DNA of 64,000 nucleotides from an uncultured Spirochaetota bacterium (GTDB lineage Bacteria > Spirochaetota > B62-G9 > DRHN01): contig CAZGJW010000001.1 of assembly GCA_964525675.1 (NCBI GenBank), forward strand, positions 40,467-104,466. The letters are read 5' to 3'. The notes under the pieces were generated by a model. That model ran no database searches, had not been told where the DNA came from, and saw only the letters and a program-made list of their open reading frames with translations. Shown here one piece after another: positions 12,309 through 24,918 of the stretch. The position numbers and the translations under genes are program-made. Position 1 is the stretch's first letter, and every line of letters begins with the position of its first letter.

Positions 12309-13805
12309 TTATCTGCGATGTATCACTCGATAGAGCTGTTTGCCGATACGTTCCTGCGAGTACACCCGCTCTACCACCTCCTTGTTTACCCGTACCAGCG
12401 CTTCCCGGCGCTCCTGGTCGAAGAGCCGCAGGGTTGCGAGCACACTCGTTTCATTGCGGTCGATGAAACCCTTGACGTATCCAGGATCTTTGAGCTTGAG
12501 CACCTTCTTCAGTCGTTCCTGCAGGCCCAAATCCGGATCTTTTTCGCCGTTTCCAATATCCTTGTAATCCTTACCGTCTACAATCAATGCATTATAGAGA
12601 TGACCAAGCTTCATACCAGAAGCCTGAAAATCAGGTGTTATGTAGGGTATGCTTCTGCCGATGACGGCCCTGTCCAGCAGCCAGGGTTCTATATAGGAGA
12701 ATCCAAATCCCTCCAGAATACTCGTTGTAATGACAAGGTCTGAAGCGCTGTAGAGATCGCCGATACTGTAACTCACTATTTTCGAGCTATCCATCGGATC
12801 ATACTCGCGTTCCAGTGAGATGAGGTCTCCCAGGCCGATCGTTACTGGCAACCCATGTTTCTGTACAAATTCGACGAGCCGGTTTGCATACATGGCGTCG
12901 TCACCCGATTCCGGTTTGATGCTCACGAGCAGGTGGTAGGGATCCTTCAACCTGCAGTTGTCCCGCACCCTAGTATTATCAACGAGAAGGTTGAAAAAAT
13001 TGATGAGAAATATCGCCTCTTCCACATTCTTGCGGCGCACACAGCGTACAGGATAAAGGAGAAATCGAATGTCGGGGGAGAGGCCTTCCCTGGTGATTAT
13101 TTTCTCTCGAAGCTCTTTTCTGCGGTCATCGGGAGGCACGATTGTCCTGTCAACCGGATTGGGGATATAGTGTATGTTTACCTCTTCGATGCCGTGCTCA
13201 AGAAGCCGCATTCGATCATAGCGGTTTATTGCGATGTACGTAATACTTGGGTATGCAGGATAGAGAATGCTGTGCCAGTCAGGCACCACCCCGAACCTGG
13301 GGTGATGAAACTTCTTTACATTCCTGAAGAATGCAGGGCGCTGCTGTACAAAGTCATGACATCGGTAGATAAACCTCTTGCCCATCCCCCTGGTATATGC
13401 ATACTGCGTATACAGGTAGAATGCATAGGTTACATAAGGCTGTATACCGATCCCCAGGTTTTCAATCATGATGAGATCCATATCGGCAAGTTTGTCCACC
13501 AGCACCTCAGCCAGATTGGTGCCCATCCATACGTAGTCGTGCACCTGCTGATCGAAAACCGTTTTACCACTAAGCCTGCCGGCAGCCTCCTCAGCGTTGA
13601 ACTCATCAATGTTTCGAAAATCCACGTTTCGCGGCAGGGGCTTGATGAACTCCTCGTAATCAGGGGCCAGCTTGCCAAAGAGCGTAATTCTCATGTCGGG
13701 ATCGATTGCACTCAGGGCGCGTACATTCCGTGCAATCACCGTGTTCACGCCATCTCTAAACCCGATGCCGTAGTGGCCGATTCCAAGGTGCAACTTTTTT
13801 TTCAT
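12309..13805 (-). CDS. GT-B fold glycosyltransferase (GT4-like C-terminal domain), specificity unknown
   Basis: 498 aa. The C-terminal SILEGFGFSYIEPWLLDRAVIG resembles the GT4 E-x7-E region. It is paired with a canonical GT4 gene upstream. Confidence 0.55.
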   Translation of the reverse strand: MKKKLHLGIGHYGIGFRDGVNTVIARNVRALSAIDPDMRITLFGKLAPDYEEFIKPLPRNVDFRNIDEFNAEEAAGRLSGKTVFDQQVHDYVWMGTNLAEVLVDKLADMDLIMIENLGIGIQPYVTYAFYLYTQYAYTRGMGKRFIYRCHDFVQQRPAFFRNVKKFHHPRFGVVPDWHSILYPAYPSITYIAINRYDRMRLLEHGIEEVNIHYIPNPVDRTIVPPDDRRKELREKIITREGLSPDIRFLLYPVRCVRRKNVEEAIFLINFFNLLVDNTRVRDNCRLKDPYHLLVSIKPESGDDAMYANRLVEFVQKHGLPVTIGLGDLISLEREYDPMDSSKIVSYSIGDLYSASDLVITTSILEGFGFSYIEPWLLDRAVIGRSIPYITPDFQASGMKLGHLYNALIVDGKDYKDIGNGEKDPDLGLQERLKKVLKLKDPGYVKGFIDRNETSVLATLRLFDQERREALVRVNKEVVERVYSQERIGKQLYRVIHRR

Positions 13806-13834
13806 TCTCTCACTCCCTCGCTTACTCCCTAATG

Positions 13835-15031
13835 TCAGGTTTGTTGTGTTTTCAGGAGGGCCCGATCCCTGAGACTAATAGGAACGGTTTTTTTATCGAC
13901 CATCACCTTCCTGTACAGTTTTACATGTTTCTTTGCCGTAATGTTCCATCCGATAGATTCACGGACATAATTGAGCGCCCGTTTACTGTACTCAGCCTGA
14001 AGATCGTCGTCTTCCATGATGTTGATAATTGCTCGCTTTAATTCTGTGTCGTTACCAGGCGGCACCGCTATACCTGCACCGCTCGCCTCGATTTCAGCTT
14101 TGAGTCCCTCGATTCCGGAGGCTACAACAGGAACGCCGAGAGAAAAGGAGTGGGCAAGATTTCCACTCTGTGAGGCAAAGGTATACGGCATGACCATTGC
14201 GTCAAAGGAGGCGAGAATCCGCTCGTACTCTCCAGGAGAAAAACTTCCCAGAAGCACCTTGATACTGTTCCTTGAAGCACTCTTTTCGACAATACCAAGA
14301 AGTTTTTTCTTGTACTCGATCTGTTGGGGATCTCCAAGCCTCGCATCACCCGCAAGTACCAGTGTCGTATCAGGGCCCAGATGTCTCGACAGATCGTCCC
14401 ACATAGACAACACCCGGTGAAATCCCTTTGTGGGAGTGAACCAGCCGAGCATACCGAGCACCTTCTTGCCCCTCAGACCAAGCGCATCCTTCGCGCTATC
14501 CCTGGAGATGGATTTTCGTACTGATGCACCGTGCGGTATGACATATACGTTTTCCACAATACGGCCCAGGTTTGTGTGGAGATAGGCCCACTGGTAAAGT
14601 GCATGCACGATCCCGGCATCTACAAGCATTTGCATTGTATCCAGGTAGGAGCAGATCATGAAGCTCAGCTCGGTGTACACGGAATGGTAGGTTACAACCA
14701 CCGGCGGCTTACCCTCGACTTTCCACCGAAACAGGGGTCTGAAGAGGCCGCTTGCATTATCGCCCCCGGTGCGGTAGAGCCCGAACTCATGCTGAATATG
14801 TACGACGTCAGGCCGTATGCTCTTAACTACCTCGTACACGGCCTCATCCCAGCCGTGATGATCGGTATCGATTACCGGGTAAACATTTTTTTCTCCCGGA
14901 GCTCCGCCATCCGGATGACAGATAATGTGGATATCATTACCCTCATGCTGCAATGCTTCGACCAGCTCTTTAGAGTAGGTTGCAATGCCGCAGTGCCGCG
15001 GAAGCCAGCTCGACAACCATGCAATCTTCAT
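13835..15031 (-). CDS. glycosyltransferase family 4 (retaining GT-B)
   Basis: N-terminal Glyco_transf_4-like segment (KIAWLSSWLPRHCGIATYSKEL) and a C-terminal Glycos_transf_1 region. Confidence 0.75.
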   Translation of the reverse strand: MKIAWLSSWLPRHCGIATYSKELVEALQHEGNDIHIICHPDGGAPGEKNVYPVIDTDHHGWDEAVYEVVKSIRPDVVHIQHEFGLYRTGGDNASGLFRPLFRWKVEGKPPVVVTYHSVYTELSFMICSYLDTMQMLVDAGIVHALYQWAYLHTNLGRIVENVYVIPHGASVRKSISRDSAKDALGLRGKKVLGMLGWFTPTKGFHRVLSMWDDLSRHLGPDTTLVLAGDARLGDPQQIEYKKKLLGIVEKSASRNSIKVLLGSFSPGEYERILASFDAMVMPYTFASQSGNLAHSFSLGVPVVASGIEGLKAEIEASGAGIAVPPGNDTELKRAIINIMEDDDLQAEYSKRALNYVRESIGWNITAKKHVKLYRKVMVDKKTVPISLRDRALLKTQQT

Positions 15032-15080: not shown

Positions 15081-16142
15081 TTACGGTTCGTATCCCAGAC
15101 CTGGCCGATCTCCCGCGTAAAGCACTCCGTCTCTCAGAATGAGAGATCCTTTCGTTGGGTCTCCCTGGAGTCCCATGAATCCATCCAGATCTGCATAGAG
15201 CACATTTGACCGCGCAAGGGCAAAGTGGAGGCCGGCGGCTATTGCGAGCTCACACTCATCCATACAGCCAACCATCACCTCGAGGCCGGCCGATCGAGCC
15301 ACGGCGTTTATCATAAGTGCTTCATAGATTCCACCGGCTTTCATGATCTTGATGTTCACCATATCAACGAGCTCTCCGCGAGCGAGGCGGAATGCATCCC
15401 TGAGCGACATGATGCTCTCGTCCGCCATAATGGGAATAGCCGCCTCATGCGTCACAGCCCCAAGCAGGGGAAGCTCATCCCTGGGTGTCGGCTGCTCTAA
15501 AAGTTCGATGCGGGCGCATTCTGTTTTGTGTATGAACTGCATTGCCTGTTCCTTTGAATAACCCTGGTTGGCATCAAACCTGAGCTCCAGTTCATCGCCT
15601 GCCTTTTTCCGCACCCGCAGGACACGCTCGATATCCTCTTCCACGTTCAGGCCGCCCTTTAGCTTGACCGCTGTAAACCCACTTCTCATGTATGAGAGTA
15701 CCCGCTCAATGGTTCTGTCAACCGGGAGTATACCCACGGTGATGCTGGTTTTTATGCACGGCCGGTATCCACCGAGCAGTTTCCAGAGCGGAAGGCCGCA
15801 TACTTTTCCCAGTATGTCGTGCAGGGCCATATCGACACACGCTTCTGATGAAGGATGTCCTTTGAGATTAGGCCTGAGCTCCTCAAGCAGCAGAGCTATG
15901 CGCAGCGGATCCCGTCCACGGAGCGCAGAATCAATCGTATCACACACATCCTGCAGAACCGTATCTGCCGTTTCTCCTGTAACTGCCCGGTCAGGAGCAG
16001 CGCAGCCGTAGCCAACGATACCCCCATCCGTTCCCACGCGCAGAAACACGTTCACCGCTGTTTCAACCCGTTCATACGCAATAGAGTAGGGTTCCCTGAG
16101 GGAGAAAGAAAGTGGATATGCCTCGATTGTTCGTATCTTCAT
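15081..16142 (-). CDS. enolase-superfamily dipeptide epimerase (L-Ala-D/L-Glu epimerase-like, MR/MLE subgroup)
   Basis: The capping domain plus the KxK / D / E / D metal-ligand arrangement expected for a muconate-lactonizing-enzyme-type barrel. 353 aa. Confidence 0.8.
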   Translation of the reverse strand: MKIRTIEAYPLSFSLREPYSIAYERVETAVNVFLRVGTDGGIVGYGCAAPDRAVTGETADTVLQDVCDTIDSALRGRDPLRIALLLEELRPNLKGHPSSEACVDMALHDILGKVCGLPLWKLLGGYRPCIKTSITVGILPVDRTIERVLSYMRSGFTAVKLKGGLNVEEDIERVLRVRKKAGDELELRFDANQGYSKEQAMQFIHKTECARIELLEQPTPRDELPLLGAVTHEAAIPIMADESIMSLRDAFRLARGELVDMVNIKIMKAGGIYEALMINAVARSAGLEVMVGCMDECELAIAAGLHFALARSNVLYADLDGFMGLQGDPTKGSLILRDGVLYAGDRPGLGYEP

Positions 16143-16144
16143 TT

Positions 16145-16966
16145 TCAGTACCGTTTCTCGTGTATCTCATCCATGTTGAGATGCCTTAAATCATCCACGA
16201 AACGAACAAGATGTTCAATCATGATATGCCACAGCCGTTCACCCTTTTCACGAGTTGCTTTCGTTGGGTCTCCCAGAATTCCACTCCGTGAAATCTTCTC
16301 GGTCTGCGTATACCACTCCACGCTCCTGCTCGTACTGAAGTTGAGATACCTGCTCGAAAATCTGGGTATTGATTTCTTTGCCTTTTTCATATCGACCAAT
16401 TCGGGTCTTACTGCCAGAGCAGTGCTCGTCTCCATTTCTCCGGCATGAGCGTCGTTTGGGGTTTCTATGATTTTCTGCACATCCACGTCACTTGTCTCAC
16501 CGGTATCGACACAGGCGAAGATGCGGGCTTCACGGTTTATCATCTGGGCTGCATTCTGCAACGCAGGACCATTACCTCCATGACCATTGATGATCACCAG
16601 CTTACGTATGCCGTGACGCGCTATACTTATACCTATCTCATAGACCAGCCTGGTGAGGGTCTCATTACTGAGGCTGATAGTACCGCTGAACCCCATGTGA
16701 TGGTAAGATACACCATAGGAGACCAACGGCAGTACGATGGGTTTCGGTTCGCTCATCGCCTCTGCCACGGATCTGGCAAGATACTCTGCATCGAATGCAT
16801 CGGTATCCAGGGGCAGATGTGGGCCGTGCTGCTCGGTGGAGCCTACGGGAAGAAGCGCAATATCGATATCGGAGAAGCGCTGTTTTGCCTCAACCCAGGT
16901 AAGTTCCCCAAGTAAGATACCAGATTTCCCTTTCTTCACATCCATCGACATTCTCCTTGTTATCAT
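16145..16966 (-). CDS. creatininase-family amidohydrolase
   Basis: GSTEQHGPHLPLDTD metal-binding signature of the creatinine amidohydrolase family. Confidence 0.8.
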   Translation of the reverse strand: MITRRMSMDVKKGKSGILLGELTWVEAKQRFSDIDIALLPVGSTEQHGPHLPLDTDAFDAEYLARSVAEAMSEPKPIVLPLVSYGVSYHHMGFSGTISLSNETLTRLVYEIGISIARHGIRKLVIINGHGGNGPALQNAAQMINREARIFACVDTGETSDVDVQKIIETPNDAHAGEMETSTALAVRPELVDMKKAKKSIPRFSSRYLNFSTSRSVEWYTQTEKISRSGILGDPTKATREKGERLWHIMIEHLVRFVDDLRHLNMDEIHEKRY

Positions 16967-19536
16967 ACCGAAAGTGGATCAAAACTCCGCCACTGACCAT
17001 CTACTATTTTAAGCGCTCCCCGGGCATGCTGGAGATAGATGCGAAACAGCGGTCCTCGTATTTTGGGAGGTATGGTTTCAAAAGGTGAGTGCTCAGCATC
17101 GAAACGAAGGCTCTCCACCTCAGGATGAGGCGTTGCCCCTTCCCCTCCAGAAAGCATCCCCTTCTCACTGAGTAGATAGAGAACATGATCCATAACAGAA
17201 GACTCCTGATGCAGGCGCATGCGGGGCAATTCTCCAATACACACTGCCACCTGTTCTTCCGTATAACCGCAGAAGGACGGATCGGCGTCCAATGCTTTTA
17301 ACATCCCTACAGTGCGGTGACACTTTTCGCACTTCCCGCATGGTCGAGTCCGGTCCTTTTCTATCGATGCAGCATGACAGGATATTTGATTGCGCTGCAG
17401 TTGAGGGTACCGCTCCACAAGTATCTTTTGTACCAGCAGTTCCGAAAGTGACCGAAGGATGGAAAACTGCTCGATACCATATCCCTTGGCGTTGAAGTAG
17501 CCGCTCAGAGCAAGGTCGAAGTATCGACTCTGGTCGTAAAGTCCGTCGAAATACGGTATTCCTTGCAAGAAGCAGCGTCGCGTGGTATCGTATTCGTTAC
17601 CAATAAGCAGTAGTCCGATGCCGCGTTTCCTGAGCACGGGAAGGGCACCGAACAGAAACACGGCCACAGTCCAGAGCCGTATCGGGTAGTCATCAGCCCG
17701 TATATCAAGAAAATTCTGTCTGATAAAGGGAAAATGCTCGAGCATCCAGGAAAAAACGCGATCGGAGTTGGTCCATACCCTGGCGGTTCGCGGAATCCCG
17801 GACCTGAATGCACGGTAGCTGTTCAGTGCCGTGTACCAGTGTCTTCCTGATTCGTTGATAAACACCGGATGAGCCTCTATACAGGTCTCATCCATCAGCC
17901 CGAAGCTCAGGAGGCTCTCCTTTCCCCCGCTGGTCAGTACGGCACAGCGGTTTCGATCGGTCTCCCAGCACTGTAACGATTCGGGCTGTAGATCGGGAAA
18001 TAAAAGCTCAGCCTGCACATAGGATGGCCTTTTCTCGATCTTCATGGGATGAAATCCGGCTATAAGAAACGGATTGTGCTCGAGAAACTTCTTCACATAT
18101 ATTTCCCGCGCCGTATTCCGGAGCATGTATCTGAGAAATCGTCGATCGAACTCATCGTATACACCATGCAGAACAATGCTCCGGCAGAAAAGACCGTAGT
18201 TGAGCGCAATCTGCACAGCTATCATAGACGCCAGGTTTGTTGATGCCATGTCTTCAGGCTGAAACATCTCCTCTTCAAAGCGGTATATTAGATTGATGCT
18301 GTCGACCGCACCTCCCCTGTGAATCGAATACGGTGCTATAACGCGGTCCCGCTCTACACGAATTGGCCCCACCTCAAGCGAGTCGATGATAAGCAGGCTA
18401 CTGGTTTCTTCGCCCCAGGATTTTCGTTCCTTCTGCTTCTTACGGTACTTCCTGTTCACCTCGGGTTTGTATCGAACGAGATACGCTGTAATTTCATCCG
18501 CTCCCGAGATGAGCACGTCAGCAACAGGAAGGCTCGTCTCTTTTGAAATACGACTGCAAACGCGCCCTATTTCTTCCGGTTTTAGACCTTCATGGTTCAG
18601 GGTGACAGCACCGACAGGTCTTCCCGAAACGATTTCCAGTGCCTTTATCTGCAGGCCGAGCGGATGTAGCGTATATCCGGGAAACCCGTCGTACTCCTTC
18701 CGCGAAGGCGCATGCTGAAGCACGATAACATCGGGGCGTCCTGCTGTAAGTATCTCCATTCCGCCCGGGTAGGCCGGATTCAGGAAGCTTCCCTGCCCTT
18801 CAATCAAAATCACATCTGGGTGGTTGTCGTGCCAGGCCTGCCAGACCGCATTCTCGATCTCGCCAGTCACGAAATCAACGATAAGGGAATCGATGATAAT
18901 GCTGTAGTGCGCCCCCTGCATCCATGCCGTCTGACCCGTACCGATAAGCTCGACGCTGAGCCCCGCCTCCCGGAATGCATCGTACAGAATCCAGGCTGTG
19001 GTTCTCTTACCGAGCGCAGAATCCGTACCGAGTACCGCAATCTTCAGTGATTTGACCTCCTTGATTTTCCCGCTGAAGAAGTGCATTTCATCCCTGGGAG
19101 GAAGCTTCCGTATATCGCGTAATTTGACGTTGTGCCGAGCAGCCAGTTCTGCAAAATCCGGATCTTCGGAGAGTATATCGTGCAGGCCGCTATCCACATG
19201 GAGCCCGAGCCTGATTGCCTCTTTCACATCCTTCCGTGCCTTTTCACTCAGCCTCCCTCCGTCCGGTGCAAGGCCCACAACGAAATGAGTGGCCTGCGTA
19301 CCAGCTTCCTCAGCAGCCTGTACAGCCGCAGTCAGGTCTTCATACACTGGGATACCCGTAGCCCTGCCGTCGAGCACCTCTCCCGCATCCATTCCCGCAT
19401 AACGGCTGTCGATTACGGAAAGTGCACGGTAGCGTTCCGTTCGGCGTACGAGGCCATGGGCTGTCTTGCCGTTTGTTGTCGCAAATGCTCCCTCGCAGTA
19501 CACGATTGCGTTGCCATCGGGCCAGTGATTCATCAT
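16963..19536 (-). CDS. fusion protein: DUF1611-like N-terminal half + PP-loop ATP-pyrophosphatase domain (SGGKES) with a QueC-like C-terminal Cys cluster
   Basis: 857 aa with no internal stop. Residues ~1-360 resemble DUF1611 proteins (Rossmann-like N-terminal domain and P-loop-like C-terminal domain). Further downstream are CAVLTSGGKESLLSFGL (a PP-loop) and CHAASIEKDRTRPCGKCEKCH. It overlaps both flanking genes by 4 nt. Confidence 0.6.
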   Translation of the reverse strand: MMNHWPDGNAIVYCEGAFATTNGKTAHGLVRRTERYRALSVIDSRYAGMDAGEVLDGRATGIPVYEDLTAAVQAAEEAGTQATHFVVGLAPDGGRLSEKARKDVKEAIRLGLHVDSGLHDILSEDPDFAELAARHNVKLRDIRKLPPRDEMHFFSGKIKEVKSLKIAVLGTDSALGKRTTAWILYDAFREAGLSVELIGTGQTAWMQGAHYSIIIDSLIVDFVTGEIENAVWQAWHDNHPDVILIEGQGSFLNPAYPGGMEILTAGRPDVIVLQHAPSRKEYDGFPGYTLHPLGLQIKALEIVSGRPVGAVTLNHEGLKPEEIGRVCSRISKETSLPVADVLISGADEITAYLVRYKPEVNRKYRKKQKERKSWGEETSSLLIIDSLEVGPIRVERDRVIAPYSIHRGGAVDSINLIYRFEEEMFQPEDMASTNLASMIAVQIALNYGLFCRSIVLHGVYDEFDRRFLRYMLRNTAREIYVKKFLEHNPFLIAGFHPMKIEKRPSYVQAELLFPDLQPESLQCWETDRNRCAVLTSGGKESLLSFGLMDETCIEAHPVFINESGRHWYTALNSYRAFRSGIPRTARVWTNSDRVFSWMLEHFPFIRQNFLDIRADDYPIRLWTVAVFLFGALPVLRKRGIGLLLIGNEYDTTRRCFLQGIPYFDGLYDQSRYFDLALSGYFNAKGYGIEQFSILRSLSELLVQKILVERYPQLQRNQISCHAASIEKDRTRPCGKCEKCHRTVGMLKALDADPSFCGYTEEQVAVCIGELPRMRLHQESSVMDHVLYLLSEKGMLSGGEGATPHPEVESLRFDAEHSPFETIPPKIRGPLFRIYLQHARGALKIVDGQWRSFDPLSV

Positions 19537-20642
19537 CTCCTCCCCGTGAGAATCACAACGTATCTGCCGGGCTCGAGGCTCCGCTCCCGATACCCATTCG
19601 CGAGAACGGCCAGTCCCGCGGTGGAGGCAGGAAGTACACTGAGCCCCTCCTGTTCGCGGACCATTCGCGAAAAGGACATCATACTTCTATCTGAGACATA
19701 CCCGGCAAGCCCACCGGTTCTCCGAATGGCTTCCAGTGCAAGGTCACCGTCGATGGAGTGCCAGTTGATGAGCGGTTCGTTGATCTTTGTTTCCCGTATG
19801 TCCTCAGCAGAAAGATCCTCACAGGATGGCAGGTTTTTCAGATACGCCTGAACGATCGGATTTTTCCGGTACGAGGAACCGGCAATAAGTTTTGGAACAT
19901 GGGATGTTTTTCCACGTCTGTACAGGCTGACAAAACCTTTGTACATGCCTGCAAGGGTTGTCCCGTTAGACACCGGAACCGCAACGGCAGTCGGGGCGTC
20001 ACGGAGCTCATCGTATATCTCATAGGCGATCTCGCCGTACGCACTGAGCTGTAGAGCGGTATTTTCACCCCCGGGATTGGCGTCGTAGATCTCTTTTTCC
20101 GCTGCGTACTCCTGTGAGAGCTGTACCGTCTGTTCATAGTCAATCGGGGTTCGAATGATCTCGGCGCCGAATTTCCTGATCTCATCGATACGTTTGGTCT
20201 GATAGTTTTCAGGTATGAATATGAAACACTTGAGCCCTGCCATGTAAGATGCAAGTGCGATAGCCACACCGTAATTGCCGCAGGTAGCAACGGTCACTGC
20301 GTCGTATCCGCGCCTGAGTGCATCCATGCCCTGGGCAAAGGCAATACGGTCCTTCTGTGTGCCTGTCGGGTTACTCCCCTCGAACTTCATATAGATCTGT
20401 CGAAGGCCTATCTCCCGTTCACTGTTCCGGGCACGGGTCATGGTTGTGTCGCCGACCTGCGACTCAAATATATCCTCGTATGCCTCCAGGCGTTCTTCGA
20501 TGGTGAACTCAGGAGAAGATGCAATCTGGATCTGCCTTTCCGTATCGATGAGGATGTCAGGCGAGTCGGGCGTGGCACCATCGATGAGAGTGAAATTTCT
20601 GTTCGATGAAGGTGCGCTGTTCTGGTCTTCATATTCATTCAT
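19533..20642 (-). CDS. fold-type II PLP-dependent enzyme (threonine synthase / cysteine synthase-like)
   Basis: KFEGSNPTGTQKDRIA matches the PLP-lysine motif (xxSFKDR / GSVKDR) of the tryptophan-synthase-beta superfamily. 369 aa. Confidence 0.7.
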   Translation of the reverse strand: MNEYEDQNSAPSSNRNFTLIDGATPDSPDILIDTERQIQIASSPEFTIEERLEAYEDIFESQVGDTTMTRARNSEREIGLRQIYMKFEGSNPTGTQKDRIAFAQGMDALRRGYDAVTVATCGNYGVAIALASYMAGLKCFIFIPENYQTKRIDEIRKFGAEIIRTPIDYEQTVQLSQEYAAEKEIYDANPGGENTALQLSAYGEIAYEIYDELRDAPTAVAVPVSNGTTLAGMYKGFVSLYRRGKTSHVPKLIAGSSYRKNPIVQAYLKNLPSCEDLSAEDIRETKINEPLINWHSIDGDLALEAIRRTGGLAGYVSDRSMMSFSRMVREQEGLSVLPASTAGLAVLANGYRERSLEPGRYVVILTGRR

Positions 20643-20931
20643 ACTCGGCGGCTCCTCGTTGCATATATTAAAAAATCAAACACTACGTATCATTTTATGG
20701 GGCTTTTATTTTTCCATTTCTCCGAAAAATGGGCACCTGGAAAAAATATATATGATTTTTCACTGCGAGGCGATTGTGAAATGATCAGCCCCTTTCTTGA
20801 ACAGGCAACTCTCAAACTGTGTACGCATTATTCTGAATATCCTATTTTGTTAATCTTCGAGAATGCTTTATAATAGCGCACCAATTGAAAGTACAGATAG
20901 AATCATGCACCATCATCCAGGATTCATAAGT

Positions 20932-21900
20932 TTATTCATGAACTGGTGAAAACCAGACAGCCCTATGATGCAGCCGCACGCTTCCCCGCACCCACTGCCA
21001 TGCCTTCTCAGCTAAACGGCGCGTCAGAAGCAGAATAAGGTCGTCAGGTACACCTGCTGCCCGAAAGGATTGCGACGAGACGTCACACTGGTCGTTCATA
21101 TAATCAATCACTACGAATTTATTACTACGTTTGCTCATGGCTATTTCACATGAAAACCATTCGATACGGACAATATCGGCGATATCAGACGCAATTCCGA
21201 CCATCGACATCAGCCTGTGCTGCTCGAATTCTCGGATCATCGCATGCCGGTACACACCGCTTTGCGGATTCCACCAGCAGGGAAACAGCTCCCCGAACAG
21301 GTAAAAGATCCTGAACCATGCAACCACCCCCTCCAATACCTCCGGCTCCACAAACTCCTGCAGGAGGAAATGGTCGCCCGGATTGAAATTCCGCGCTTCG
21401 GCAATCTCCCGCAGAGTCAACCGATCCCGCACGATCTTCACTCCACGCTGCCCGTATCCTGTAGCCGGCTTGATGACAATTGGAAGTCCCAGTTTCTCTT
21501 TCTCTTCAAAGGTAAGCCTTCGCGAAGGCTCCCAGTTCCGTATCACCACGGTATTGGGTACTGGAATGCCGGCATTGATCAGGTTAAAATGTGTGATTGC
21601 TTTGTCCGCTGAAAACCGAACCTGATCTACATCGGCGACAATTCGGGTTCCATGGTCTTTGAGAAGGTAGGCAAATTTCGTGAATGGATGCTCCAGGTTT
21701 TCCGTGTCGGAAGCAAGGTCCAGGTAGAAACGGATTTTAAGCCTGCTTTCCAGGACATGAGACGCGACGTGCTCAAGCTTCGATTCATTTACTTTGAGAA
21801 AGCGAAGCCCTCGTGCTTCACACTCCCTGCGCAGAGCATCGATGAAGAGAACATCACCATTTTCATCAATCCACCCTATGCCGAAGTCGTATACGTCCAT
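20932..21900 (-). CDS. ATP-grasp family ligase (RimK-like fold)
   Basis: LPIVIKPATGYGQRGVKIV resembles the ATP-grasp phosphate-binding loop. 322 aa. Confidence 0.6.
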   Translation of the reverse strand: MDVYDFGIGWIDENGDVLFIDALRRECEARGLRFLKVNESKLEHVASHVLESRLKIRFYLDLASDTENLEHPFTKFAYLLKDHGTRIVADVDQVRFSADKAITHFNLINAGIPVPNTVVIRNWEPSRRLTFEEKEKLGLPIVIKPATGYGQRGVKIVRDRLTLREIAEARNFNPGDHFLLQEFVEPEVLEGVVAWFRIFYLFGELFPCWWNPQSGVYRHAMIREFEQHRLMSMVGIASDIADIVRIEWFSCEIAMSKRSNKFVVIDYMNDQCDVSSQSFRAAGVPDDLILLLTRRLAEKAWQWVRGSVRLHHRAVWFSPVHE

Positions 21901-21964
21901 AAAACCCTATTGTTACGGTTAAGATTCCCATTGGGATCATCAACAGCATATCATTGCAGCACTT

Positions 21965-22900
21965 TCATTGTACCCTCTTAAAAATAAAACTCAAGAGCTT
22001 GTACACGAGTTTCGCGGCAAGAAAATCGGGTGCTTTGTTTCGTGACGGGCAGAGCTCTACTACATCGAATCCCACCACCCGCCTGCTTTCAGTCACATTT
22101 CTCAACAGTCTGATCACCTCGTACCAGCCAAGGCCCCCCGGCTCGGGCGTTCCGGTGGAGGGCATGATTCCCGAATCAAAGACATCGAGATCGATAGTGA
22201 TATAGACGGGATCGATAAGCAGAGAGGAAACCTGTTCGAGGTATCGGTCGGAGACAGAACAATCGTGCGCAAAGAAAACACGCTCTTTCTTGAGACGAGA
22301 ATCCCCGGTCGTACCACGGGCACCCGCTTCGCTTGTACCACGGGCACCCGCTTCGCTTGTACCACGGGCACTCCCTTCGGTCGTATCCATGCTTCGTATA
22401 CCCACACTAACAACGGTATCGATGATTTCGCCGACTCTGGACATAACACAGGCATGATTGTAGCGGCTTCCCTGATACAAATCACGACGGTCGGAATGGG
22501 CATCTAGGTGCAGAACACTCAACGATCTGAAGTGCTCTGCATGGGCTGCAATGGTCCCAATAGATACCGAGTGCTCTCCTCCAAGTACCACCGTGAATTT
22601 ACCGTCGGCGAGATACCGAGCAACACGAGCCCTTACCTTTTCAACCATGGTTTCGACTTTCCACGCTCTAATCGGACGGGCCGTACACAGACCCTGCATG
22701 TACACCTGGGAATCGGTCTCAATATCGTAGAGCTCAAGGTTGCGAGATGCTTCCAATATGGCACGAGGTCCATGCCTGGAACCCTTCATCCAGGTACTCG
22801 TGCGGTCAAATGGTACGGACAACAGCACAACTCTTGAAGTATCGTATGTCGAGTACCTGAGTTCGAGACCGTAGAAGTTGCGAGGTGTCTTATCTTTCAT
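21965..22900 (-). CDS. speB: agmatinase / ureohydrolase (arginase family) carrying an in-frame low-complexity insertion
   Basis: GGEHSVS, DAHSDRRD and ITIDLDVFD Mn-binding motifs. The context is pdaD and a deoxyhypusine-synthase-like gene. The insertion EGSARGTSEAGARGTSEAGARGTTGDSR is encoded by a 24-bp tandem repeat. Confidence 0.8.
   Translation of the reverse strand: MKDKTPRNFYGLELRYSTYDTSRVVLLSVPFDRTSTWMKGSRHGPRAILEASRNLELYDIETDSQVYMQGLCTARPIRAWKVETMVEKVRARVARYLADGKFTVVLGGEHSVSIGTIAAHAEHFRSLSVLHLDAHSDRRDLYQGSRYNHACVMSRVGEIIDTVVSVGIRSMDTTEGSARGTSEAGARGTSEAGARGTTGDSRLKKERVFFAHDCSVSDRYLEQVSSLLIDPVYITIDLDVFDSGIMPSTGTPEPGGLGWYEVIRLLRNVTESRRVVGFDVVELCPSRNKAPDFLAAKLVYKLLSFIFKRVQ
22309..22380. 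repeat. 24-bp tandem repeat x3 (gtaccacgggcacccgcttcgctt, third unit diverged), in frame inside the agmatinase CDS
   Basis: Direct reading of the sequence: two perfect units and one imperfect unit. Confidence 0.85.
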
Positions 22901-22901
22901 A

Positions 22902-23456
22902 TTACTCCATGATAAATACCGCAGCAGCCATCACAGTGGTCCAGAGCCCGTCCTTATTTCCCTCAGCCGATTGACAGATATTTCTTGTCTTGAAAATATG
23001 GCCGCTTGCCCGGTACACATTCTTTCGCTCATCCCAGGCCTGGTCCGGGTCGAAAGGTATCCCGAGGGTAGTTGCCAGCATAGTTGCAGCCAGGTCTTCC
23101 GCGTAATTGCCCGAAATACGGGCGGTTTCGCCGAAGCTGTGGTGCTCGGCTATGTACCCGTAGTGCTCCCTCTCCTTGGGAACAGCTATACCGATAGCCG
23201 CAGAAACGAGACGATTTGGCTCTCTCGTCCCGTTTCTTGCCAAGACGCAATAGGTGAGCTGGCCGGCCTTTAACATCGCCAGCCCTTCTTCCTTGGTGAT
23301 TATTGCACACATTGGAGGCAAAATGCTCGAAACATAGACCAGGTTACACTTTTCGATGCACGCCTGTCTCAACGCCACTTCGAAAGAAGAGAGCTTGTCG
23401 CGGTGCATACCGACACCCTTGGTAAGGAAGAGTTTTTTCGGAATGAGCCCCATCAT
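22902..23456 (-). CDS. pdaD: pyruvoyl-dependent arginine decarboxylase
   Basis: N-terminal IPKKLFLTKGVGMHRDKLSSFEVALRQA...VYVSSILPP is a near-consensus PdaD start, including the self-cleavage serine region. 184 aa. Confidence 0.85.
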   Translation of the reverse strand: MMGLIPKKLFLTKGVGMHRDKLSSFEVALRQACIEKCNLVYVSSILPPMCAIITKEEGLAMLKAGQLTYCVLARNGTREPNRLVSAAIGIAVPKEREHYGYIAEHHSFGETARISGNYAEDLAATMLATTLGIPFDPDQAWDERKNVYRASGHIFKTRNICQSAEGNKDGLWTTVMAAAVFIME

Positions 23457-24484
23457 TTCTTCTCTCCGTCAAGAAATGCATTGAACTCCTTCTGGTTCCG
23501 ATTTCTCCACGAGCCATTGTGGTATGCAAAACTCGCAATGAGTGGCACCGCAATGGTGGCCTCGGAAAAAACGATCTGCTCAGCACCTTCGTCCACCTTA
23601 CCCCAGGAGTGCGCTTCCTTCAGGGTCGAACCGGACAACCCCCCGTCCCGTTCATCGGCAACGGTGATCTGCACGGCATATTTGTGCATGGATACCTCTT
23701 CACCAAGGATGTCCGCCGCAACCGTGACATCCTGGGCAAAGTTCTTGGGTACCCCGCCCCCGATCATGAACAGTCCCGTGGCCTTTGAAGCGACCTTTAT
23801 ACTTGTCAGCTCTAGGAAATCCTTCACCGAGTCTATCGTCACATGGGCCTTCTTTTTCCGCTCCCACTGATGATAGACCAGCCCGAATCCTGCGCTGGAA
23901 TCGGAGAAGGCGGGTACGAAGATGGGTACTCCCATCTGATGGGTAGCCCACATGACCGACCCCTTGCCTATTTTCTTTTTCACCAGGTATTTTGCCATAA
24001 TCCGGATGAACTCCCGCGAAGAGTACGGCCGTGCCGGGAGCCCGTCAGCGATCTCCTTTACGGTCATATCGCAGACGCGAAGCTCCTCCTCATCGATGTA
24101 GGTATCGTATATTCGGTCGATCTGTTGGCTCATAAGCCTGTCGTCGTCCGCCAACGGTGTGCCCTGATAGTGTTTGAAGCCCAGGGCCTCGAAGAAATCC
24201 TGATCCACTATGATTGCACCGGTAGAGACAATCACATCCACCATGTTGAACGAGACCAGGTCGACCACGATCTTTTTCAGTCCGGCGCTGAAGAGCGATC
24301 CCGCAAGGCAGAGGATAATGGTACAGTCATCGTCGGCGAGCATTGCGTCATATATACGTGCCGCCCGCGCCAGGTTTCTCGCCTGAAACGCCGTCTTCTC
24401 GAACTGCTCGATGATGGGGACTGCATTGAAGGTTTTTATATTTATGTGCTGCACTTCGTGCTTTAAATATTCCTTTTTGTCCAT
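23453..24484 (-). CDS. deoxyhypusine synthase-like protein (homospermidine-synthase-type polyamine aminobutyl transferase)
   Basis: DHS-family length and motifs. I moved the start to the ATG at 24484 (MDKKEYLKHE), which has AAGGAGGTG 7 nt upstream. The 38 codons before it in the ORF are Cys/Arg-rich and look non-coding. Confidence 0.8.
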   Translation of the reverse strand: MDKKEYLKHEVQHINIKTFNAVPIIEQFEKTAFQARNLARAARIYDAMLADDDCTIILCLAGSLFSAGLKKIVVDLVSFNMVDVIVSTGAIIVDQDFFEALGFKHYQGTPLADDDRLMSQQIDRIYDTYIDEEELRVCDMTVKEIADGLPARPYSSREFIRIMAKYLVKKKIGKGSVMWATHQMGVPIFVPAFSDSSAGFGLVYHQWERKKKAHVTIDSVKDFLELTSIKVASKATGLFMIGGGVPKNFAQDVTVAADILGEEVSMHKYAVQITVADERDGGLSGSTLKEAHSWGKVDEGAEQIVFSEATIAVPLIASFAYHNGSWRNRNQKEFNAFLDGEKK

Positions 24485-24918
24485 TTTTCTACACCTCCTT
24501 CTATTTATGCATGTTAAATATACCATGCATTCAGGTACAAATCCATACGTGTATCTATCGGGACACCCTCCCTTCGCACAGCATTTACAAAAACCCACTA
24601 TATTATGCTCACCGTGGAGGGATGGTCAATAAAATTCAAGTACAATATGAGGCATTAATCAAGAAAATTGCGGATATCACAACGGTTTCCACTTGTAATT
24701 ATAAGGATTATAATTATAATCAGTATAGGGGGTGGCAGATCATTCATAATACTTTTCTACCTGTTGGAGTTGGTACCAATAAGTAATACAGGGAAACTTG
24801 TTGACTTCATCGTCTGAACATGTTTATCATAACGCTGTGTTTCCACCAAATAGATATTCACTTCCATGGGCTCTGCATAACTTTATTATCGAGAGAGTAC
24901 GCTACAAGGAATCCCTCA

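Follow-up and report, generated by a model that had tools for sequence, protein, structure and literature searches.

A SpeY-type homospermidine operon and an S66-associated ATP-grasp ligase are probably juxtaposed, independent units in an uncultured Spirochaetota bacterium

We analysed a 64-kb stretch of DNA (64,000 nucleotides of contig CAZGJW010000001.1, assembly GCA_964525675.1; hereafter the window) from an uncultured Spirochaetota bacterium, in which four consecutive genes encode a deoxyhypusine-synthase-like protein (SpeY), a pyruvoyl arginine decarboxylase (PdaD), a speB-type ureohydrolase and an ATP-grasp ligase. Judged by sequence, the first three genes make up an ordinary SpeY-type homospermidine operon, which belongs to a known pathway. 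The region is probably a juxtaposition of independent units in which the ligase is not dedicated to polyamines. The adjacency of the ligase to the polyamine genes is a shallow, lineage-specific juxtaposition; its older synteny is not with these genes, but with a gene for an S66 hydrolase and with the block that follows the ligase in the window, which encodes a pyridoxal-phosphate (PLP) enzyme, a DUF1611 protein fused to a QueC-like domain, a creatininase-family protein and an epimerase-like protein. An initial annotation had described the four genes as a polyamine operon extended by a ligase that could make amide-linked polyamine conjugates. Its genes, coordinates and spacings were recovered, to which we add the strand, minus for all four genes: speY overlaps pdaD by 4 nt, pdaD and speB are separated by 1 nt, the ligase gene follows speB after 64 nt, and the gap between the ligase gene and the PLP gene measures 289 nt. 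These features are as follows.

23453..24484, minus strand: speY (Pfam DS, 9e-94, 314 bits; NCBIfam NF002699, 565.9 bits against a cut-off of 500)
22902..23456, minus strand: pdaD (Pfam PvlArgDC, 3e-59, full length)
21965..22900, minus strand: speB-type ureohydrolase gene (Pfam Arginase, 5e-62; TIGR01230, 228 bits against a cut-off of 174)
20932..21900, minus strand: gene for the ATP-grasp ligase of 322 residues (Pfam RimK, 22.7 bits against a cut-off of 21)
20643..20931: non-coding gap of 289 nt, at the position that the S66 gene occupies in loci L008, L035 and L166

We compared the window with the best 80 of at least 554 relatives of the ligase (one genome per species, up to 10 kb of flank on each side), searching these loci with all window proteins and clustering the neighbouring open reading frames (ORFs). 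The genes speY, pdaD and speB stand beside the ligase in a single locus of the 80, L007, whose ligase is 89% identical and whose gene arrangement is the same as that of the window. We also examined 80 SpeY loci from a metagenome scan (60–74% identity, 40 of them with at least 4 kb downstream), and neither the ligase nor any gene of the PLP block was present in any of them. The order speY-pdaD-speB is identical in L007 and in four of the SpeY loci (L086, L087, L090 and L094), and in these four it ends after speB. Co-occurrence of ATP-grasp genes with polyamine genes, which the initial annotation had put forward as a check on its proposal, is thus confined to one locus when approached from the ligase and to none when approached from SpeY.

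By comparison, a same-strand gene for an S66 LD-carboxypeptidase-like protein is found in 42 of the 80 ligase loci, within 200 nt of the ligase gene in 38 of these, and in 32 of the 61 loci with flanks on both sides. This protein scores 136 bits against the model of the muramoyltetrapeptide carboxypeptidase LdcA (cut-off 378), and its gene is the only widely conserved neighbour of the ligase family. In a neighbour-joining tree of 74 homologs, the clade of the window, L007 and L006 is sister to S66-linked Spirochaetota ligases and is nested inside the S66-linked family, indicating that S66 linkage is ancestral and that the polyamine adjacency is derived and shallow. The window itself holds no S66 homolog or remnant in its 64 kb, the 289-nt gap included (tblastn, E ≤ 10; chance matches only).

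The Spirochaetota relatives show how the arrangement is put together. At a ligase identity of about 57%, L008, L166/L167 and L035 have the order ATP-grasp, S66, PALP and DUF1611, and contain no polyamine genes; in L008 and L166/L167 the creatininase and epimerase genes follow the DUF1611 fusion. This polyamine-free order, taken together with the counts from the ligase and SpeY loci, identifies the adjacency in the window as shallow and lineage-specific. In the closer relatives L006 and L001 (ligase identity 88%), all that remains of the arrangement is the ligase gene with the 64-nt spacer and the final ~29 codons of speB; the genes around them, for an M50 peptidase, a hypothetical protein and MarR, are unrelated. 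L006 has an intact ligase and no polyamine genes within 10 kb, and its assembly (GCA_964521865.1) carries the PLP, DUF1611, creatininase and epimerase genes on a different contig from the ligase. Conversely, L038, which is about 93% identical to the window at the nucleotide level, has suffered an in-frame deletion that fuses speY codons 1–3 (MDK) to residue ~178 of the ligase. The deletion takes out speY, pdaD and speB as well as the half of the ligase that binds ATP, and leaves the PLP block in place at 93–98% amino-acid identity. The arrangements in L006, in L038 and in the deeper Spirochaetota show that the three units are separable from one another. Thus the suggestion that the ligase bridges two modules stands insofar as the PLP/DUF1611 block of deeper Spirochaetota begins with the ligase and S66, and it falls on the separation of the units in GCA_964521865.1 and L038.

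Some features of these loci were noted in passing. The deletion in L038 (9974–10444, window position 24484 joined to 21375) leaves a 156-residue fusion ORF under the start signals of speY, and about 1.2 kb of extra DNA precedes the PLP gene there. In L035 (9447–10744, Spirochaetota chromosome CP070841.1), the ligase homolog is split into two frames near residue 80 by a frameshift or an assembly error, and DUF1611 is without fusion to the QueC-like domain.

The polyamine genes belong to a recently described route. SpeY of the window scores above the cut-off of NF002699 ("1,9-bis(guanidino)-5-aza-nonane synthase"), and it reaches the cut-off of none of the NCBIfam models for true deoxyhypusine synthases. 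PdaD matches PF01862 with 199.9 bits over profile positions 1–161 of 161 and TIGR00286 with 114.4 bits (cut-off 106.95), and lies slightly under the cut-off of NF009064 (199.2 against 207 bits). The speB-type protein keeps the metal-site motifs GGEHS, DAHSD and DLDVFD. The genomic association of SpeY with an arginine decarboxylase (ADC) and an agmatinase-type partner is likewise present, with pdaD overlapping and speB adjacent. SpeY, also called CdmS, joins two agmatines to N1,N9-bis(guanidino)homospermidine (G44G), from which a ureohydrolase then yields homospermidine (PMC10981699). SpeY homologs of diverse phyla all produce G44G, the SpeB homologs associated with SpeY hydrolyse G44G and not agmatine, and Caldilinea aerophila has an experimentally characterized cluster of SpeY, SpeB and pyruvoyl ADC (PMC13625781).

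We therefore predict, from family membership, that the deoxyhypusine-synthase-like protein of the window is a SpeY that couples agmatine with itself to form G44G, and by analogy the speB-type enzyme would hydrolyse G44G to homospermidine and two molecules of urea. In such a route PdaD would convert arginine to agmatine, SpeY would couple two agmatines to G44G in an NAD-using reaction, and the SpeB homolog would remove the two ureas to leave homospermidine, with no putrescine intermediate. The initial annotation had read the genes as a path from arginine through agmatine and putrescine to homospermidine. Its homospermidine operon holds; its putrescine step does not, since the SpeY-type family and the published G44G activity of SpeY and SpeB homologs imply a route that bypasses putrescine (PMC10981699, PMC13625781).

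The SpeY pathway of Thermus thermophilus and C. aerophila relies on the same three enzyme families; the operon of the window is tight, and with C. aerophila it shares a pyruvoyl-type ADC. The window differs in its host, an uncultured Spirochaetota bacterium to which the route, described only in 2024–2026, is here extended from sequence, and in a SpeB homolog with a repeat-built insertion of about 30 residues. The insertion holds an in-frame 24-nt tandem repeat (22311..22379, 2.9 copies, 95% matches) with units of the ARGTSEAG type. It spans 25–32 residues and occurs only in the window and in L007, where its sequence differs; the homologs in L086 and L169 are without it. The speB-type gene also has the highest ratio of nonsynonymous to synonymous substitution rates (dN/dS) of the cluster, 0.19.

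Turning to the ligase, a search of 5.8 billion proteins returned 107 full-length homologs, nearly all of 327–328 residues and aligning end to end. They come largely from metagenome-assembled genomes (MAGs) of Candidatus Omnitrophota, and the family is made up mostly of Omnitrophota and Spirochaetota members, with few from other uncultured lineages. An alignment of 40 homologs has 24 invariant columns, all of them present in the window protein, among them K100, K144, E252, D266 and N269, which we take to be ATP-binding lysines and metal ligands. The family-specific motifs are DK(S/A)ITH, CWW and DY(M/V)ND. In the last of these (residues 266–270) the presumed metal-binding Asp and Asn are three residues apart; the usual spacing of the ATP-grasp metal site is E-x-N. 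The window protein is 50–58% identical over 98–100% of its length to the S66-linked members, and its dN/dS is 0.081 in comparison with L007 and has the same value with L006, in which the gene occurs on its own. On these sequence comparisons the gene is functional and under purifying selection. The AlphaFold model (AF2; mean predicted local distance difference test score, pLDDT, 89) matches Ddl and LysX/ArgX structures in Foldseek at a probability of 1.0, with template modelling (TM) scores of about 0.6 and identities of 13–20%. Sequence and model together indicate a full three-domain ligase of an uncharacterised family.

This family is distinct from those that the initial annotation had offered for phylogenetic placement (RimK, GshB, Gsp and CphA); the protein scores under the NCBIfam cut-offs for RimK, GshB and CphA, and the Gsp model does not match it. 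The best family-model scores are with the LysX/ArgX/RimK alpha-L-glutamate ligases (TIGR00768, 52.4 bits against a cut-off of 143.4; LysX, 51.9 against 275.6), and only residues 22–185 align. The LysX/ArgX structures 3vpb and 3vpd match at TM 0.62–0.64, with a common three-domain architecture of about 300 residues. However, identity to these enzymes is 16–20%, the C-terminal half of the window ligase has invariant motifs of its own (CWW and DYxND), and no gene for a LysW-type carrier or related to S6 lies nearby. Ddl is the top match in Foldseek and in PDB-profile searches (3v4z, 2e-14; 3r23, 4e-5), and Ddl-like paralogs share an operon with more distant members of the family, whereas identity to Ddl is 13–17% and the NCBIfam model of Ddl gives 26 bits (cut-off 243). 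GshB (24 against 408 bits) and CphA (26 against 877) also fall under their NCBIfam cut-offs, and an hhalign comparison with a GshB-like protein reaches a probability of just 25%. An exhaustive profile search of 1.84 billion cluster representatives matched 675, 325 and 149 of them at E-values of 1e-3, 1e-10 and 1e-30, respectively; with so few matches at every limit, this is a small, discrete family that stays apart from RimK and from all other large families.

Glutathionylspermidine and trypanothione synthetases (Gsp) are ATP-dependent ligases that form amide-linked polyamine conjugates. The window ligase has in common with them only the general chemistry of ATP-dependent carboxylate-amine ligation, as first proposed, with no detectable sequence relationship: the Pfam model GSP_synth matches neither the window protein nor any of 40 family members at E ≤ 0.1, and Gsp-type structures are absent from the 50 best Foldseek matches listed for the model. 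The ligase thus groups robustly with a family that is not associated with polyamines. The initial annotation had named such a grouping, with RimK as its example, as what would count against a polyamine-conjugating role; the family found is an uncharacterised one and not RimK.

In the mechanism that we propose, the ligase would be an ATP-dependent carboxylate-amine ligase whose ancestral partner is an S66 (LD-carboxypeptidase/MccF-like) hydrolase. The ligase-S66 pair heads the PLP, DUF1611-QueC-like, creatininase and epimerase module in Spirochaetota, and in the lineage of the window the S66 gene would have been lost and the polyamine operon placed upstream of the ligase. Formation of an amide bond by ATP-grasp enzymes passes through an acyl-phosphate intermediate. 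The most likely reaction of the window ligase is the attachment of an amino acid to another amino acid or a short peptide at the carboxylate of the latter, and acylation of polyamines is unlikely. The substrate is probably an amino acid or a short peptide, of a D-amino-acid-containing or murein type, such as the S66 partner would trim; the analogy is drawn from the S66 association, the Ddl-like ligases in the paralog operons and the dipeptide-epimerase-like enzyme in the Spirochaetota clusters.

The minus-strand gene run extends past the stop codon of the ligase gene to about position 12309. Its further members are the following, and beyond the epimerase gene and the GT4 genes it includes TrkH and TrkA.

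19533..20642, minus strand: fold-type II PLP enzyme, threonine-synthase-like; first gene of a widely conserved four-gene module
16963..19536, minus strand: protein of 857 residues in which DUF1611 (both its N- and its C-terminal domain) is joined to a QueC-like PP-loop ATPase domain
16145..16966, minus strand: creatininase-family amidohydrolase
15081..16142, minus strand: enolase-superfamily protein resembling dipeptide or N-acyl-amino-acid epimerases
12309–15031: GT4 glycosyltransferase and a 498-residue GT4-like protein

The last 497 residues of the DUF1611 protein (16963–18456) are the QueC-like domain, in which two motifs stand out, SGGKES and the Cys-rich CGKCEKC. Its AF2 model (pLDDT 85) matches QatC (4e-6), QueC (7e-5) and Cap9 (2e-4) in Foldseek. 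At least 3265 homologs at 55–58% identity are spread across phyla, and the domain occurs fused to DUF1611, fused to creatininase (in other phyla) or free. The block of PALP, DUF1611, QueC-like, creatininase and epimerase genes is conserved in distant lineages (L168, L169, L170, L171, L172, L173 and L174–L177), including a Gemmatimonadota chromosome. We found nothing in the literature on this block, and nothing relevant that joins DUF1611 with ATP-grasp, or ATP-grasp with LD-carboxypeptidase or Omnitrophota. Among the closest known systems is DgcN/DgcA, a DUF1611 N-acetyltransferase and an enolase-type racemase, of which dgcN is described as the central gene in a pathway for D-Glu racemisation (PMC12363236). 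The window DUF1611 protein scores 145 bits to DgcN and the enolase-superfamily protein 145 bits to DgcA. These scores are under the cut-offs of 480 and 400, respectively; in addition, the window DUF1611 is fused to the QueC-like domain, and it invariably has a PLP enzyme and a creatininase-family protein as companions.

An alternative with some claim to attention, though we judge it unlikely, is that the ligase is the first enzyme of a pathway encoded by the PLP module, with S66 encoded elsewhere in the genome and with a shared metabolite derived from an amino acid or a dipeptide. Candidates for such a pathway would be the salvage of D-amino-acid or murein peptides, or the synthesis of a small peptide-like solute. 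The deeper Spirochaetota order, ATP-grasp-S66-PALP-DUF1611-creatininase-epimerase in L008 and L166/L167 and partly in L035, favours it. In other phyla, moreover, the module stands next to a second, different pairing of an ATP-grasp ligase with a carboxypeptidase-like gene, namely a GshB-like ligase with a QEGLA/MATCAP-family protein, plus FGase (L169, L172 and L174–L177, where MgtE is also a neighbour). In L013 (2811–4115), a homolog of the 498-residue GT4-like protein of the window follows the ligase. The combination of S66 and an Ala-Glu epimerase also recalls the Bacillus subtilis murein-peptide genes ykfA-ykfB: the ligase family has an S66 neighbour of LdcA/MccF type, and the Spirochaetota clusters hold an enolase-superfamily enzyme that resembles L-Ala-D/L-Glu epimerases. 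The likeness is limited by the S66 score under the LdcA cut-off and by the absence of S66 from the window, and to our knowledge the murein-peptide recycling set includes no ATP-grasp ligase. Other observations speak against such a pathway. Most members of the ligase family, in Omnitrophota, have S66 and lack the PLP module, the module is widespread without this ligase family (L168, L170 and L171), ligase and module are unlinked in GCA_964521865.1, and L038 keeps the module after truncation of its ligase.

Less probable still is that the whole minus-strand run is an island for adaptation to osmotic or ionic stress, in which the polyamine operon, the ligase, the PLP module, the two GT4-type glycosyltransferases and TrkH/TrkA would be co-regulated and biochemically independent. 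In unrelated lineages the module does repeatedly have ion-transport genes as neighbours: TrkH/TrkA in the window and L166, MscS and MgtE in L169, L171 and L174–L177, CNNM in L172, and an AA_permease-TrkA fusion in L168. The GT4 glycosyltransferase and the 498-residue protein travel as a pair, which adjoins the PLP module in L173 (12631–15346) and speY in L086 (3–2656), and the 498-residue protein is distantly similar to mannosylglucosylglycerate synthase. Nevertheless, this similarity to a compatible-solute enzyme amounts to 50 bits against a cut-off of 640, and the argument is one of neighbourhood in about ten lineages with no regulatory elements identified.

Several observations weigh against our reading of the region as independent units, and most of them are those that would favour a polyamine-conjugating ligase. 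The ligase gene is on the same strand as speB and 64 nt from it. No terminator was predicted on the minus strand in the 64-nt or the 289-nt gap; the sole minus-strand match lies inside speY and does not exceed the expectation from shuffled sequence. Co-transcription is plausible, and transcripts of the polyamine operon may run on into the ligase gene. Scans of the window for tRNA genes and Rfam families found nothing, so no RNA element explains the gaps. The adjacency is kept in L007, and with the speB remnant before the ligase in L006 it is ancestral to a small clade. A ligase that is under selection without an adjacent S66 gene must use an unlinked partner or have another role, and the family is uncharacterised. 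Finally, L169 (1–15210), from an unrelated lineage, has a divergent deoxyhypusine-synthase-like gene, an agmatinase gene and a SpeA-type ADC gene beside the PLP module, a second case of polyamine genes adjoining it. We considered the deoxyhypusine-synthase-like gene of L169 as proof of a polyamine link and rejected it: it is divergent (117 and 101 bits, under the cut-offs), has no counterpart in the related L174–L177, and serves as a lead only.

These points speak for the model that the initial annotation had favoured, in which the ATP-grasp gene is part of the polyamine operon and its product attaches an amino acid or a peptide, by the carboxylate, to homospermidine, G44G or agmatine. The product would resemble a gamma-glutamyl- or glutathionyl-polyamine and would possibly feed the PLP/DUF1611 block. 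We regard this as improbable. The genomic counts on both the ligase and the SpeY side weigh against it, as do the intact ligase of L006 and the lack of similarity to Gsp-type synthetases; the invariant residues of the window protein are common to S66-linked homologs at 56–58% identity, and there is therefore no sign of a change in specificity. Furthermore, the ligase gene has a conserved promoter-like motif immediately upstream. The two promoter-like sites of the region are listed below.

24602..24629, minus strand: TTGACC-16-CATAAT (10/12), upstream of speY; a consensus match only, in a region syntenic with L038
21967..21994, minus strand: TTGAGT-16-TACAAT, in the last speB codons, upstream of the ATP-grasp gene; a consensus match only

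The first site is likely to mark the start of the polyamine operon. A GTG at 24598 would allow a longer speY ORF; both the family models and the homology to L007 begin at the ATG at 24484. The second site is kept in L007 as well as in L006, which no longer has speB as a gene, and its sequence is suggestive of a promoter for the ligase.

Only a very slim chance attaches to the last alternative, that the ligase was recruited to the speY operon after the loss of S66 and acylates homospermidine or its guanidino precursor, with the adjacent module elaborating the product; it would mean a new amide-linked polyamine metabolite and a first function for the ligase family or for the widespread module. 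Our preferred reading, that of independent units, removes the tempting inference of a polyamine conjugate, and in its place assigns the operon to the SpeY/G44G homospermidine route. It also defines two uncharacterised targets: the S66-paired ATP-grasp ligase family and the very widespread, highly conserved PLP, DUF1611, QueC-like, creatininase and epimerase module. A substrate for either, if found, would give meaning to thousands of "hypothetical" annotations. L169 and the recurrence of ion-transport genes leave a weak possibility of a broader functional neighbourhood, which does not single out the window ligase as a polyamine enzyme.

Ddl-like ATP-grasp genes, often two, lie upstream of the ligase in 25 of the 80 loci, mainly in a distant paralog group (~40% identity) whose operon has the order helix-turn-helix (HTH) protein, small protein, two Ddl-like proteins, ATP-grasp and S66. 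An arginase-family gene 1.7 kb from the ligase in an archaeal MAG (L043) was considered as a second polyamine link and set aside, being on the opposite strand with genes in between, 26% identical and in housekeeping surroundings. In the Omnitrophota paralog operons (L041, L047, L053, L062, L065, L068 and others), the HTH protein is ArsR-like and the small protein has ~120 residues. Genes for GH65-like phosphorylases recur downstream of these operons, and several genomes carry both ligase paralogs.

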